A stretch of DNA of 64,000 nt from Acidobacteriota bacterium (GTDB taxonomy: Bacteria; Acidobacteriota; Blastocatellia; RBC074). This document shows positions 56,731 to 59,946 of the stretch, piece after piece (position 1 is the first letter of the stretch; each line of letters starts with the position of its first letter). The notes beneath the pieces were generated by a model that saw nothing but the letters and a program-made list of their open reading frames with translations, had not been told where the DNA came from and did no database searches. The position numbers were made by a program, and so were the translations under genes. The stretch spans positions 21,696 through 85,695 of the forward strand of contig JAFDVL010000102.1 in the NCBI GenBank assembly GCA_018268995.1, in the 5' to 3' direction.

Positions 56731-57591
56731 TTATTTTTTCGGCGGCGCATACGTCGAAAGTGGGTACGCCTTCAGCCCAAAGGTTTCCGGGCTTTCTGCC
56801 AAGATGGCAGCGGCAAAGAACCTGGGCAGATAATGAACCCCTTCGTCTAAAAAAGCCTTGTCGAATTTCTTGGCGTCTGGCTTCGCTAAGATCGCCCAGA
56901 GTTCACCGCCTGAGTCGTGCTCTTTAATCAATTCAGCAAAATCGCGTTTTACATTTGCAGTGCCACGGTTGTACGCAAGCATGGCCAGCGCGGCGGAGAT
57001 GCCATCCTTCCCAAATTCCGCCATTCGCGCTTTGATAAATCGAGCCGCCGCGTTTGCCCCTTTCTCGACATCGCAAAGGGCATCCGCTTTTACGCCTAAA
57101 CTTGTGGCAGATGCTGGCAGGATGGCAAACATCCCTTTCCCTTTGCCCTTCGCAGGGCAGGGTTGGAATTCGGATTCCAACAACGCAACCGCATTCCCTA
57201 ACGTTTCCAGGACTTTCTCTTTTTCAAACTCACCATTGATAATAGGAGCATATTGCACCGCACGCTCAAAGACTTTGTTCAGGTCTTCACCGCCCGACTT
57301 GGGATCAGCAGCGCCAACGCGTACGGCATAGACATCAACCCATTTTTTGATCAACTGGACGCCTTCTGCTGAAACCACCAAAGGCTTTTCAGGGGATAAC
57401 ATCCAACCAAGATTTCCCGCGTAATTTGAGATAAAACTGGCCCGTGCCTGGTCATTCATTTTCAAATACTGTGATGCGCCACTTGTTGCAGCCTCTGAGG
57501 CTTTGGGCGCTGAGGTATTGCTTTGGGCGAGGATCGGCATGGCTAAAAACAGCAGTGAGGTTAGCATGACCGATGGGATTAACTTCTTCAT
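56731..57591 (-). CDS. Secreted lytic transglycosylase (SLT-domain) protein.
   Basis: Signal peptide MKKLIPSVMLTSLLFLAMPILAQS. SLT-like motifs are LLESEFQPCPAKGKGKGMFAI (ES-x-F...G-LMQ variant) and LAMLAYNRGTANV (AYNAG-like). Confidence 0.55.
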   Translation of the reverse strand: MKKLIPSVMLTSLLFLAMPILAQSNTSAPKASEAATSGASQYLKMNDQARASFISNYAGNLGWMLSPEKPLVVSAEGVQLIKKWVDVYAVRVGAADPKSGGEDLNKVFERAVQYAPIINGEFEKEKVLETLGNAVALLESEFQPCPAKGKGKGMFAILPASATSLGVKADALCDVEKGANAAARFIKARMAEFGKDGISAALAMLAYNRGTANVKRDFAELIKEHDSGGELWAILAKPDAKKFDKAFLDEGVHYLPRFFAAAILAESPETFGLKAYPLSTYAPPKK

Positions 57592-57604
57592 TTTTCCTGA
57601 CTCC

Positions 57605-58924
57605 TTATCGTTTGACGAAATAAAAATCTCCATCAAGGGAGGTATTTTCCCAGGGCACTTGTTGACCATTTGTTTTTTCTTTAACTGCAATTCGGGTTCG
57701 TTTCAGTACTTCTTCTACTTTTAAATTCGGCTCGCGCATGTGCCTTAATAATTCCTGCGTGTACAGACCATTTTTCCCATCGCCATCGCTGGCAACTTCT
57801 CCTGGCCCCGTGGCATAAGCCACAACGGTTCCACTTGGTGCCGACATCACCGCGAGTCCACGTGAAAGTGAGCGCGTACGTTGCACAAAAGGGTTGTTGC
57901 GACAGGCGTCCAGAATCACGATATTCAAACGGCTCCCAGCAGATTCCAATTCGTTCATGATCCGGCCTGCATCCACGGCTTCATATTCGGCATCGCCTTC
58001 CTTTTCAATCTTTGCTCCGACAGGAACCAGATAATTTACGCCTTTGACCTGAATTCCGTGTCCCGCAAAATAGAACAAGGCCACGCTGCCGCGCTGTATT
58101 TTATTGCCAAACGCGCGCAGGCTTTCTTCCAGTTCGCGTTTGTTCAGGTTGGTATATTGCATGACCTCAAAACCTGTTTCACGCAGGGATTGCGCCATCG
58201 CATTAGCATCGTTAGCAGGATTCGCCAACGGGCCAACCTGATAGTTGCTATTCCCGATCACCAAAGCCAGACGATTTGTGCTACTGATTTCATTGACCGA
58301 GCTGGATGAAATGCCCGAATTTGTGACGACAGTTGAATTCCCGTCACTGCGAGCAGGCGTACTGACAGCAGGATTCTCATTCGGCTTCTTTTCCGGCGGC
58401 AGAACAGGCCCGGTCGGCTGATTTGTATTGTTGCGGACGGGTGGATTTGTCGGCGCAGTATTTTTGCTAATGATTACTGGCCCTTTCACTTTCAAAGTAA
58501 AAAAGCCGCTTTGGTTGTTGCGCGGGCCAAAAACGCGCATGAGCACATTTTGACGAGTGTCCAGTCGAAGTTTTGCATCCTTCCGGTCTCCACCGGAGGA
58601 AGCATCAAACTTGATCAGTGTTTGTGCATCAGCATCCAGAATTTCGACGCCGATGTTTGACCATTGCTCATTGGTTTTCACCTCAAGAGAAAAACTGACA
58701 TCGCCCGGCCCGGCGGTAAAAGTATAGAAGCGGTTGATGGAAACATTCGGAGCAATATTCCCTTTCAATTCCTGATTGAACAATGGCATGGGATTATCTT
58801 TGCTGCTTGGTTGTGCAAACACCAGTTGAGCGACACAAAGACAGCCCAATGCAATCCAACGCAACCTGCAAGACAATCGGTTTGCGCTGTTGGAACTTCG
58901 ATGTAAGGCGTTCAATAATTTCAT
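57605..58924 (-). CDS. Secreted caspase-family (peptidase C14) protease with an N-terminal β-sandwich pre-domain.
   Basis: Signal peptide. The caspase His/Cys dyad is ALFYFAGHGIQ ... IVILDACRNNPF. It lies inside the T6SS operon. Confidence 0.8.
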   Translation of the reverse strand: MKLLNALHRSSNSANRLSCRLRWIALGCLCVAQLVFAQPSSKDNPMPLFNQELKGNIAPNVSINRFYTFTAGPGDVSFSLEVKTNEQWSNIGVEILDADAQTLIKFDASSGGDRKDAKLRLDTRQNVLMRVFGPRNNQSGFFTLKVKGPVIISKNTAPTNPPVRNNTNQPTGPVLPPEKKPNENPAVSTPARSDGNSTVVTNSGISSSSVNEISSTNRLALVIGNSNYQVGPLANPANDANAMAQSLRETGFEVMQYTNLNKRELEESLRAFGNKIQRGSVALFYFAGHGIQVKGVNYLVPVGAKIEKEGDAEYEAVDAGRIMNELESAGSRLNIVILDACRNNPFVQRTRSLSRGLAVMSAPSGTVVAYATGPGEVASDGDGKNGLYTQELLRHMREPNLKVEEVLKRTRIAVKEKTNGQQVPWENTSLDGDFYFVKR

Positions 58925-58953
58925 AATTTGCCCTATTGCTATCAGAGTCAGCC

Positions 58954-59946
58954 TTACTGAATAGGCACAACTTTATCTTTCACCTTCGCTGCACCGCTGC
59001 CAGAGAACCGACCTTCGGCACTTGAGTCGTCAACATCGGTCAAGACAACTTCGCCGACTTTTTCAGCGACAACGCGAATGACTTTCCCGGTGTCAGGGTC
59101 TTTGACCTCACGGCTAACACGTTTCACTTCCAGACGGTCGCCCGTTTTCAGGCCTGCATTGCGCCCGATATTGATGATGACGGTCGAGCCGGAAACATCA
59201 GCGATCACGCCTTCAGATTTTACAGCGGCTGAAGTTCGTGCCGGTAAATTGCCTGCTTTTTCCTCTAATTGTGCAGCTAATTTATTGACGCAGTCGTAGA
59301 CAGCTTCGCCAATGATCGTTTCCGCGAAATTGGTGGAATTCATGCCAACCGCACCATCGGTATAGACGCCTTTGACACCACCCGTCGCTTGAATGCTCGC
59401 GCCTTCGCGTTTGGATTCGCCGCGCGCATCACCAGCTGAGAATATTTCTGCCGTGTCGGTTGCCACCAGCCGAAAGTTGATCCCCACAATCGCCTTGGCT
59501 TTCTTGGAGCCAATTTTTACACCGCCAAAAACCGGGACAGGAACGCTGACGCCGCCGCCTGTGCCTCTGGATTTATCATCGCGCCCGAACGTGTGGATAC
59601 TGCCTAAAATCAAGGCATCCACGCCGAGGATTTTGCCAATTCGGGCAGCGGTTGCTTCATCTACACGCCCGCTGGCTCCCAGGTTTTGCTCTGCAATAAT
59701 CTTGTCAAGTTGCTTGCGTTCGATGATGCTGTATTGCCCGCCTTGTACTAATTTCGTGACGAGCAAATCAGCAATACCTTTGCCAACATCCACGTTGGAG
59801 CCGAAGATATAGCCGACATCACTGTAAACGGTTGCATAGTCGAAATCTAAAATTGCGATTCTCTTTTTCTGTTGGGCTTGGGATGAAAATGAAATTCCCG
59901 CCAATAACATCAATGCGATGAGTAATGGAGTGGTTTTTCTGAACAT
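58954..59946 (-). CDS. CsgG-like (curli secretion channel family) secreted protein with a C-terminal β-domain.
   Basis: Signal peptide without a lipobox Cys. The segment RIAILDFDYATV...GKGIADLLVTKLVQGGQYSIIERKQLDKIIAEQNLGASGRVDEATAARIGKILGVDALILGSI follows the CsgG-family pattern. Confidence 0.6.
   Translation of the reverse strand: MFRKTTPLLIALMLLAGISFSSQAQQKKRIAILDFDYATVYSDVGYIFGSNVDVGKGIADLLVTKLVQGGQYSIIERKQLDKIIAEQNLGASGRVDEATAARIGKILGVDALILGSIHTFGRDDKSRGTGGGVSVPVPVFGGVKIGSKKAKAIVGINFRLVATDTAEIFSAGDARGESKREGASIQATGGVKGVYTDGAVGMNSTNFAETIIGEAVYDCVNKLAAQLEEKAGNLPARTSAAVKSEGVIADVSGSTVIINIGRNAGLKTGDRLEVKRVSREVKDPDTGKVIRVVAEKVGEVVLTDVDDSSAEGRFSGSGAAKVKDKVVPIQ

Follow-up and report, generated by a model that had tools for sequence, protein, structure and literature searches.

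A CsgG/FlgT-like exported protein and a caspase homolog as a candidate periplasmic accessory module of an Acidobacteriota type VI secretion cluster

Threonine-phosphorylation pathways with periplasmic inputs are known for type VI secretion systems (T6SSs), namely TagQ/TagR-PpkA-PppA-Fha in Pseudomonas aeruginosa and RtkS-PpkA in Serratia. How T6SSs that lack TssJ cross the periplasm and the outer membrane, and how envelope signals reach the machine, have been studied mainly in Acinetobacter and Pseudomonas. The TssJ-less Acinetobacter T6SS has periplasmic TslA (a stabiliser) and TsmK together with a cluster-encoded peptidoglycan hydrolase, TagX, and T6SSs without TssJ can work without any outer-membrane anchor (PMC12949010). 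According to work cited in the same paper, TssM of enteroaggregative E. coli recruits MltE, a lytic transglycosylase that lets the T6SS membrane complex pass the cell wall (PMC12949010). Here we describe a 64,000-nucleotide stretch of DNA from a soil Acidobacteriota bacterium (GCA_018268995.1, contig JAFDVL010000102.1), hereafter the window, in which genes for a CsgG-like protein, a caspase-like protease and an SLT-family lytic transglycosylase lie between tssG and clpV of a T6SS cluster. We read these genes, with a probability of about 0.5, as a lineage-specific periplasmic accessory module of a T6SS cluster without TssJ, made up of a CsgG/FlgT-class scaffold, the enzyme encoded downstream of it and an optional SLT protein.

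The closest functional precedent is Acinetobacter TslA/TsmK/TagX, which likewise belongs to a TssJ-less cluster with lineage-specific periplasmic accessories and a peptidoglycan-cleaving enzyme (PMC12949010). However, the families are unrelated, TagX is an L,D-endopeptidase whereas the window encodes an SLT lytic transglycosylase, and the Acinetobacter system has no known protease partner. In contrast to MltE, a housekeeping lipoprotein whose gene lies elsewhere, the SLT protein of the window is a non-lipidated protein encoded within the operon, and most relatives do without it. FlgT of the Vibrio flagellar H-ring and TsaP, which is associated with the type IV pilus secretin, form periplasmic rings around envelope-spanning machines and are Sec-exported and non-lipidated, as is the CsgG-like protein. 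FlgT shares its TolB-N/CsgG-class N-terminal alpha/beta domain, and both FlgT and TsaP share its C-terminal FlgT_C beta domain. The CsgG-like protein has no LysM domain, there are no flagellar or secretin genes at its locus and its gene is paired with an enzyme gene.

The locus and its exported proteins

On the minus strand of the window the genes run in the order 166-residue open reading frame (ORF), tssF, tssG, 330-, 439- and 286-residue ORFs, clpV, macro-domain gene, gene for a 375-residue M15-like protein, vgrG and PG_binding gene. The module, its flanks and the adjoining genes are as follows.

58954..59946, minus strand: CsgG/FlgT-like exported protein, 330 residues (Pfam CsgG and FlgT_C)
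57605..58924, minus strand: exported caspase-like C14 (paracaspase/orthocaspase-type) cysteine protease, 439 residues (Pfam Peptidase_C14)
56731..57591, minus strand: exported SLT-family lytic transglycosylase, 286 residues (Pfam SLT)
60028..61077, minus strand: tssG (baseplate), upstream flank of the module (Pfam T6SS_TssG, 1.9e-111; TIGR03347)
54028..56691, minus strand: clpV/tssH ATPase, downstream flank of the module (NCBIfam TIGR03345 VI_ClpV1, 1318 bits)
61109..62965, minus strand: tssF (baseplate), same operon (identical protein annotated PF05947 T6SS_TssF on a public contig)
63513..64000, minus strand: 3' end of a PKMT-like methyltransferase gene (533 residues on the public contig; between tssE and tssF)

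A preliminary description of this DNA had assigned CsgG, C14 and SLT domains to the three ORFs between tssG and clpV, and Pfam confirmed each assignment, with the His/Cys dyad and the catalytic Glu intact. The spacings it gave were exact for the CsgG-like to caspase (29 nucleotides) and caspase to SLT (13 nucleotides) gaps; the third, 39 nucleotides from SLT to clpV, holds only for a TTG start, and becomes 45 nucleotides to the ATG at 56685, which the public annotation uses and which is likely the true start of clpV. The CsgG-like gene follows tssG after 81 nucleotides. An AAGGAG Shine-Dalgarno site precedes the ATG at 57591, which is the start of the SLT gene; the longest ORF reaches 57690. 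Signal peptides had been claimed for all three proteins, and inspection of the N-termini bore this out: each has an n-region, an h-region and an AxA-type Sec cleavage site (..SSQA/QQ, ..VFA/QP and ..ILA/QS), and none of the three has a lipobox Cys. A promoter and terminator scan returned no more sites than did shuffled sequence and is therefore uninformative on operon structure.

The exact TssF protein of the window was also found on a public contig of GCA_044222815.1, a metagenome-assembled genome (MAG). Upstream of the point corresponding to base 64000, that contig carries the PKMT-like methyltransferase, tssE, a gene for a 111-residue protein, hcp, tssC, tssB, tssA, tagJ/ImpE and the part of tssM that encodes the last 475 residues of its product. 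Since genes from tssM to tssE thus adjoin the window, the module is embedded in a full T6SS-i type cluster.

The caspase matched Peptidase_C14 (PF00656) with an E-value of 2.9e-42. In its AlphaFold2 model (mean predicted local distance difference test score, pLDDT, of 75), a signal helix is followed by a confident eight-strand beta-sandwich (residues 52-147), a disordered Pro/Ser/Thr/Asn linker (155-212) and the C14 domain (218-435), whose best fold match was the MALT1 paracaspase (E 4.7e-15). The catalytic dyad, H289 (FAGHG) and C341 (DACRN), is invariant in 27 homologs, as is D339. We take D339/C341 to be the counterpart of D462-x-C464 in MALT1, and by analogy with D462 the enzyme likely cleaves after Arg or Lys. 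The preliminary description had stated that a periplasmic caspase-type protease is not a known T6SS component; full-text literature searches agreed, returning from the library covered no link of caspases or orthocaspases, or of CsgG-like or FlgT-like proteins, to T6SS. A second exported caspase is encoded at 35303-37714 (minus strand), an 803-residue protein with a signal peptide, a C14/CHAT domain and TPR repeats. It sits in a stretch (34353-43469, minus strand) that also encodes a CHAP-domain protein, a Big_1 protein and a 1511-residue FG-GAP/DUF11/beta-helix protein, and it shows that exported caspase homologs are no rarity in this genome.

The CsgG-like gene and its enzyme partners across Acidobacteriota

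We scanned a genome collection with an alignment of CsgG-like homologs, which returned 80 loci (given L numbers below), screened with the T6SS proteins of this cluster by tblastn and also examined individual contigs. Eleven further distinct loci encode a CsgG-like protein 66-90% identical to that of the window (L004, L009-L016, L092 and L093, with L004 and L009-L016 coming from MAGs of Blastocatellia or of unclassified Acidobacteriota), and the gene directly follows tssG in 11/11. The contigs of L011 and L016 stop before the next gene and that of L014 stops inside the caspase gene; the order tssG, CsgG-like, caspase, clpV is kept in the remaining eight, as well as in L005, a second assembly of the L004 locus. 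The synteny of the triad with T6SS genes, a point raised by the preliminary description, thus holds for the CsgG-like and caspase genes. The caspase gene comes immediately after the CsgG-like gene in six cases and after one or two unrelated inserted genes in five. In relatives this interval is an insertion hot spot that has received genes for AbiEii-like nucleotidyltransferases, an M74-like peptidase without a signal peptide and small proteins of no recognised family, at the following positions.

L009, 11090-11773: inserted between the CsgG-like and caspase genes
L010, 10977-11988: same interval
L012, 11091-12598: same interval
L014, 6067-7334: same interval
L015, 11102-11884: same interval

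Within the Blastocatellia clusters, the CsgG-like proteins share 80-90% identity, level with TssB, TssF and ClpV (82-96%) and above TssG (63-84%), Hcp, TssE, TssA and VgrG. The position of the pair is kept down to 66% identity for the CsgG-like protein and 51% for the caspase, with a divergence that tracks that of the T6SS core proteins.

The triad did not hold for SLT. The SLT protein matched Pfam SLT (PF01464) with an E-value of 4.1e-09 and has its catalytic Glu139 in LLESEF and an AYNRG motif at 206. Among the Blastocatellia loci, however, its gene was found only in the window, L009 and L010, that is in 2/9 relatives spanning the tssG-clpV interval, which are the two closest. SLT is thus a variable, optional extra outside the conserved unit. 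Its closest relatives found outside Blastocatellia are the periplasmic domains of three FHA-TM-SLT-like proteins (TM, transmembrane) encoded in tandem on a marine-sediment contig (L090, 701-5152), directly upstream of tssK-L-M-tagJ-tssA-tssB. In an alignment with the L009, L010 and L090 homologs, the catalytic Glu is kept in L009, L010 and L090_b, the middle protein of the trio and the only one of the three to retain it. In the L090 proteins, it appears, the T6SS Fha module has been fused to a periplasmic domain resembling lytic transglycosylases. Since they belong to an unrelated T6SS cluster, this SLT subfamily is independently tied to T6SS clusters. We also considered the gene for a 260-residue M74-like protein in L012 and L015 as a stand-in for SLT, and rejected it because its product has no signal peptide; it is more likely cargo or an effector.

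The other 69 loci, from Bryobacterales, Terriglobales and other Acidobacteriota, encode CsgG-like proteins about 50% identical to that of the window. We refer to them as the kinase clade. In 51/69 of these, the next gene downstream is that of a bitopic Ser/Thr kinase (Pkinase, 1.8e-54) with one transmembrane segment at ~300-400 and a periplasmic C-terminal helical domain ending in ..LExFLG[KR]. This usual pairing with a PpkA-like kinase points to a scaffold-plus-enzyme logic. In three loci the downstream gene instead encodes a signal peptide, a C14 caspase domain and the periplasmic C-terminal domain of the kinases (..LE[SR]FLGR), as follows.

L038, 11004-12128: caspase with the kinase-type C-terminal domain
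L047, 10961-12082: caspase with the kinase-type C-terminal domain
L075, 1097-2332: caspase with the kinase-type C-terminal domain

Judged from their sequences, these three loci represent a natural kinase-to-caspase domain swap. Since the caspases carry the C-terminal domain of the kinases, a kinase and a periplasmic caspase are interchangeable partners of the CsgG-like family.

T6SS core genes were found within 10 kb of the CsgG-like gene in 15/69 kinase-clade loci, in at least four arrangements. The first, tssK-tssL-tssM-(methyltransferase)-CsgG-like-kinase, is seen in L024, L026, L037, L077 and L028; the methyltransferase is present in L024, L026 and L037, and in L077 and L028 the CsgG-like gene comes immediately after tssM. 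L072 has tssM-PP2C-CsgG-like-kinase and L050 has CsgG-like-kinase-tssK-tssL-tssM, while in L035, L040, L042, L056, L062, L073 and L087 the order tssE-F-G-clpV-(PAAR)-vgrG is followed a few kb later by CsgG-like-kinase. In a neighbour-joining tree the T6SS-linked loci were spread over at least six subclades. The observed linkage is far above chance, for which we estimate roughly 1-2% from the size of T6SS loci; with its 10 kb flanks, a T6SS locus takes up an estimated 1% or so of a 6 Mb genome. As with TagQ/TagR and RtkS, the kinase clade places the gene for a periplasmic protein beside that of a bitopic Ser/Thr kinase, sometimes with a PP2C gene, in T6SS clusters. With PP2C and its place beside tssKLM, the kinase version has the look of a novel kind of periplasmic input into the PpkA/PppA pathway. 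The CsgG-like protein nonetheless has no sequence relation to TagR, TagQ or RtkS, and the window has a wholly periplasmic caspase in place of the kinase, with no Fha or PppA seen.

These neighbourhoods bear on whether the pair has to do with T6SS at all, or is cargo in an operon insertion hot spot that serves, for example, general envelope proteolysis or stress sensing. The variable AbiEii-like, M74-like and small genes that relatives hold in the tssG-clpV interval would fit cargo, as would the occurrence of the pair outside T6SS loci and of other exported caspases in the genome, such as that at 35303-37714. We nevertheless think this improbable: the pair keeps its place while diverging in parallel with the T6SS core, and the linkage of the CsgG-like family to T6SS genes recurs independently, and in varied arrangements, in other classes at a rate well beyond our chance estimate.

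Several further genes recur in these neighbourhoods. The PKMT-like methyltransferase (Methyltransf, MethyTransf_Reg and PKMT winged-helix domains; continued on L001 7548-9149) is encoded between tssE and tssF in every Blastocatellia-type cluster that we saw. In other Acidobacteriota its gene immediately precedes the CsgG-like gene, whether or not tssKLM are present (the L024 copy is at 8279-9736). L025 and L057 have methyltransferase-CsgG-like-kinase, and L020, a short contig that stops before the downstream gene, has methyltransferase-CsgG-like. The methyltransferase looks like a further undescribed T6SS-associated gene. Divergent from tssK in L077 (2832-4142, minus strand) and L024 (654-1904, minus strand) is a gene for a 416-436-residue protein that has a kinase-like N-terminal stretch of ~90 residues, a long run of Pro/Ala-rich repeats (..GSFTQMFQAPAAPI..) and a C-terminal transmembrane segment; it gave no Pfam match and is 38-61% conserved in the tssKLM-CsgG-like-kinase loci. 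In four related Terriglobales loci (L027, L054, L079 and L086), the CsgG-like gene is not followed by a kinase gene; ~0.7 kb downstream there are instead genes resembling pilM/N/O, as judged from N-terminal sequences only. These loci are syntenic with each other and therefore represent one event. The pilM-like neighbours recall TsaP, whose C-terminal domain resembles that of the CsgG-like family.

Fold, TssJ and other genes of the cluster

The CsgG-like protein consists of a signal peptide (~1-24), a CsgG-family alpha/beta domain (~28-231) and a FlgT_C/TsaP-like beta domain (246-328). It matched Pfam CsgG (PF03783) with an E-value of 8.3e-38 (130 bits, profile positions 4-207 of 210) and FlgT_C (PF16538) with an E-value of 1.8e-06 (28.7 bits against a cut-off of 27). 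The top Foldseek match of its AlphaFold2 model (pLDDT 71.6) in the PDB was FlgT (3w1e; E 2.5e-15, 319 aligned columns, TM-scores 0.45/0.42), next came the Vibrio LPHT ring (8z5n, E 3.6e-14), and CT253, the CsgG pre-pore (4uv2, 1.4e-05), GNA1162, PelC, LpoB and TolB matched below these. When the family profile was compared with PDB sequences, the best match was TsaP, by the C-terminal domain (E 8e-4), and weaker matches (E ~0.03) were obtained to FlgT and to E. coli CsgG, the latter aligned through the TM1 hairpin. The N-domain thus belongs to the CsgG sequence family and fold class, which also includes the ring formers CsgG and PelC, and of the two outcomes envisaged at the outset, a CsgG fold or an unrelated one, it is the former that was found, with FlgT closest over the whole length and TsaP closest for the C-terminal domain. 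Unlike that of FlgT, the N-domain is Pfam CsgG rather than FlgT_N and keeps two CsgG-type hairpin loops. No flagellar genes were found in the window or in any T6SS-linked locus.

The likeness to CsgG, the curli (type VIII) secretion channel, raises the question of whether the protein is a true outer-membrane pore that exports or displays the neighbouring caspase, with its placement in the T6SS operon reflecting co-regulation only. The two proteins share the Pfam family, over nearly the whole of its model, and the alpha/beta fold, and the CsgG-like protein retains loops of ~24 residues at the positions of the TM1 and TM2 hairpins (125-146 and 189-200), of which TM1 aligns with that of E. coli CsgG. 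In CsgG itself, each subunit of a nonamer contributes two amphipathic hairpins to a 36-strand barrel. The constriction loop of CsgG forms stacked Tyr, Asn and Phe rings (PMC4594475), and the equivalent loop here, compared by eye only, has a conserved aromatic-G-[ST]-N motif (YIFGSN). The signal peptide and long disordered linker of the caspase, and the occurrence of the pair outside T6SS clusters, could also be accommodated. However, the Y-x-x-x-N-F order of the CsgG motif is not kept as such, the match to E. coli CsgG is weak, and the loops are Gly-rich, low in pLDDT and poorly conserved, being the least conserved part of the protein and very rich in Gly and Ser in the kinase clade. Lipidation is a hallmark of CsgG, yet the lipobox Cys is missing here and in most of 24 aligned homologs. 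The CsgG-like protein also has no N-terminal linker, and its FlgT_C domain is additional. Pfam found no csgE, csgF or csgA/csgB-like genes among the neighbours in the window or on the public contigs, and an inner-membrane-anchored kinase, the usual partner of the family, is impossible as a pore substrate. With no lipid anchor, no curli partners and the architecture of a ring protein, the evidence argues for a FlgT/TsaP-like periplasmic collar over a classical CsgG pore, which we consider rather unlikely.

As to TssJ, the preliminary description had remarked that none was visible. This is true of the window, where it is weak evidence because tssK, tssL and tssM lie outside. A complete cluster of a relative (GCA_009612815.1; L089 and L004) was therefore informative; a metagenome scan returned the 846 kb contig of a relative. 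The complete cluster comprises, in order, genes for a prepilin-peptidase-like protein, an OmpA/BON protein, an 828-residue coiled-coil membrane protein and a 235-residue cytoplasmic protein, then tssK, tssL, tssM, tagJ, tssA, tssB, tssC, hcp, tssE, the methyltransferase gene, a gene for a 170-residue protein, tssF, tssG, the CsgG-like gene, the caspase gene, clpV, vgrG and Rhs. No ORF of this cluster matched T6SS-SciN, and strict and loose lipobox scans found no lipoprotein candidates in its structural part. When the T6SS-linked loci were scanned in the same two ways, all lipobox matches were either antisense artefacts or lipoproteins that are probably immunity proteins and lie at a distance from the structural genes. 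IcmF_C, the TssJ-binding domain, was undetectable in Blastocatellia TssM even at an E-value of 0.1.

It could be argued from these results that the CsgG-like protein is a purely structural stand-in for TssJ which anchors the periplasmic tip of TssM, with the caspase as a maturation protease for either protein. The gene is conserved like core genes, and in L050, L077 and L028 it, or its pair with the kinase gene, directly adjoins the tssK-L-M block. We regard this as a poor prospect all the same. The CsgG-like protein matched neither the TssJ profile (PF12790) nor the TssJ fold and is not a lipoprotein, TssJ-less T6SSs function without an outer-membrane anchor (PMC12949010), most family members are not beside T6SS genes, and a passive anchor would not readily account for the tight pairing with a kinase. 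We also asked whether IcmF_C is lost wherever the CsgG-like gene is present and rejected this, as IcmF_C was detected in TssM of kinase-clade clusters; there is therefore no general argument for replacement of TssJ. Finally, that the three proteins are toxic effectors, delivered by the T6SS or otherwise secreted, as the preliminary description had offered as its alternative, is very improbable: proteases and peptidoglycan hydrolases are common effector activities and the genes lie within a T6SS operon, but the Sec signal peptides direct all three to the producer's own periplasm, no immunity-like genes were seen adjacent, the genes lie in the structural block between baseplate and ATPase genes rather than next to vgrG, PAAR or hcp, and the CsgG-like protein shows the conservation of a structural component, in contrast to the likely effectors near vgrG, which differ from one relative to another.

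Directly upstream of tssF, the 166-residue ORF (62974-63474, minus strand) encodes a protein 53-66% identical in relatives, with a papain-like pattern (Q..NSCWAAS ... GGTHMN) and a weak Peptidase_C34 match, and it may represent a small cysteine peptidase or amidase retained within the structural operon; in L092 and L093 a Peptidase_C70-like gene separates hcp from tssE. Between clpV and vgrG (52289-53995, minus strand) lie the genes for a macro-domain protein of the O-acetyl-ADP-ribose deacetylase type (2.5e-67) and the 375-residue protein, which has a faint M15_4/LAS-peptidase motif and no signal peptide. Both genes are kept in L009, and the macro-domain gene is kept in L010, whose contig ends right after it, and L013; they may form an effector/immunity or ADP-ribosylation-related pair. 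Downstream of vgrG (45585-49925, minus strand) are genes for a 245-residue PG_binding_1 protein, a 613-residue protein with a weak zinc-metallopeptidase motif, a 263-residue protein of no recognised family and a 299-residue probable lipoprotein (MNCRMIWAGPIISMLLFFAC..), which are likely effector and immunity cargo. At 33292-34260 (minus strand), a Schlafen/AlbA_2 domain is fused to an EC042_2821-like restriction-endonuclease-like domain, a defence-type architecture.

Proposed role of the module

The preliminary description had proposed a new envelope-spanning or regulatory accessory module. We retain this for the conserved CsgG-like/caspase pair; SLT is not in the unit, and an outer-membrane conduit is not favoured because CsgG-type lipidation is lacking and the fold is closest to the periplasmic ring proteins FlgT and TsaP. 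We propose that the CsgG-like protein, Sec-exported, non-lipidated and periplasmic, probably oligomerises into a ring or collar at the T6SS membrane complex, on its periplasmic or its outer-membrane side, and that it would act jointly with the enzyme whose gene comes next downstream. In the window and its Blastocatellia-type relatives this partner would be a periplasmic caspase-like protease, probably specific for Arg/Lys, and in most other Acidobacteriota the bitopic PpkA-like Ser/Thr kinase. Through this pair, T6SS assembly or activity may be made to respond to the condition of the envelope or of the membrane complex. The kinase version would do this by phosphorylation, and the caspase version would use a periplasmic cleavage in its place. 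The SLT protein would be an optional add-on that opens the peptidoglycan locally for the T6SS.

Several observations weigh against this reading. T6SS genes are absent within 10 kb from 54/69 kinase-clade loci, and the pair may therefore be a general envelope module that is sometimes linked to T6SS. In a sister subclade (L006, L017 and L018), the CsgG-like and caspase genes occur together without visible T6SS genes; L017 and L018 are shorter contigs, and the L006 pair sits among housekeeping genes of a 9.5 Mb genome. No Fha, PpkA or PppA was seen in the Blastocatellia clusters, where no cytoplasmic read-out is therefore evident. The caspase of the window lacks the C-terminal domain shared by the kinases and the L038, L047 and L075 caspases and has a different, N-terminal beta-sandwich instead; we looked for a domain common to this beta-sandwich and the periplasmic C-terminal domain of the kinases and found none, and docking to the CsgG-like protein is therefore only assumed here. 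The confidence of the model on which the CsgG-like fold rests is moderate, and TssJ could be encoded elsewhere in the genome.

A bolder version of our proposal, which we hold to be tentative and on balance doubtful, is that Acidobacteriota swapped the TssJ-based outer part of the T6SS membrane complex for a FlgT/CsgG-like periplasmic ring that docks an exchangeable signalling enzyme, which would be a PpkA-type kinase in most lineages and, in those of Blastocatellia type, a periplasmic caspase-like protease that switches T6SS assembly or firing by proteolysis. If true, this would represent caspase-based post-translational control of a bacterial secretion machine.

The component families of the module are already known, as are, in principle, accessory modules for TssJ-less T6SSs. 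Next to those of Acinetobacter and Pseudomonas, the locus would represent a third type of solution, unrelated to the other two and found in a phylum that is dominant in soil, in which a ring-type periplasmic protein is tied either to a kinase or to a caspase-like protease. Confirmation would extend the T6SS parts list by a new accessory family and would, for the first time, assign a periplasmic caspase homolog a role in a secretion system, and the exchange of a kinase for a protease on one sensor scaffold would be useful for studying how bacterial caspase homologs are controlled.

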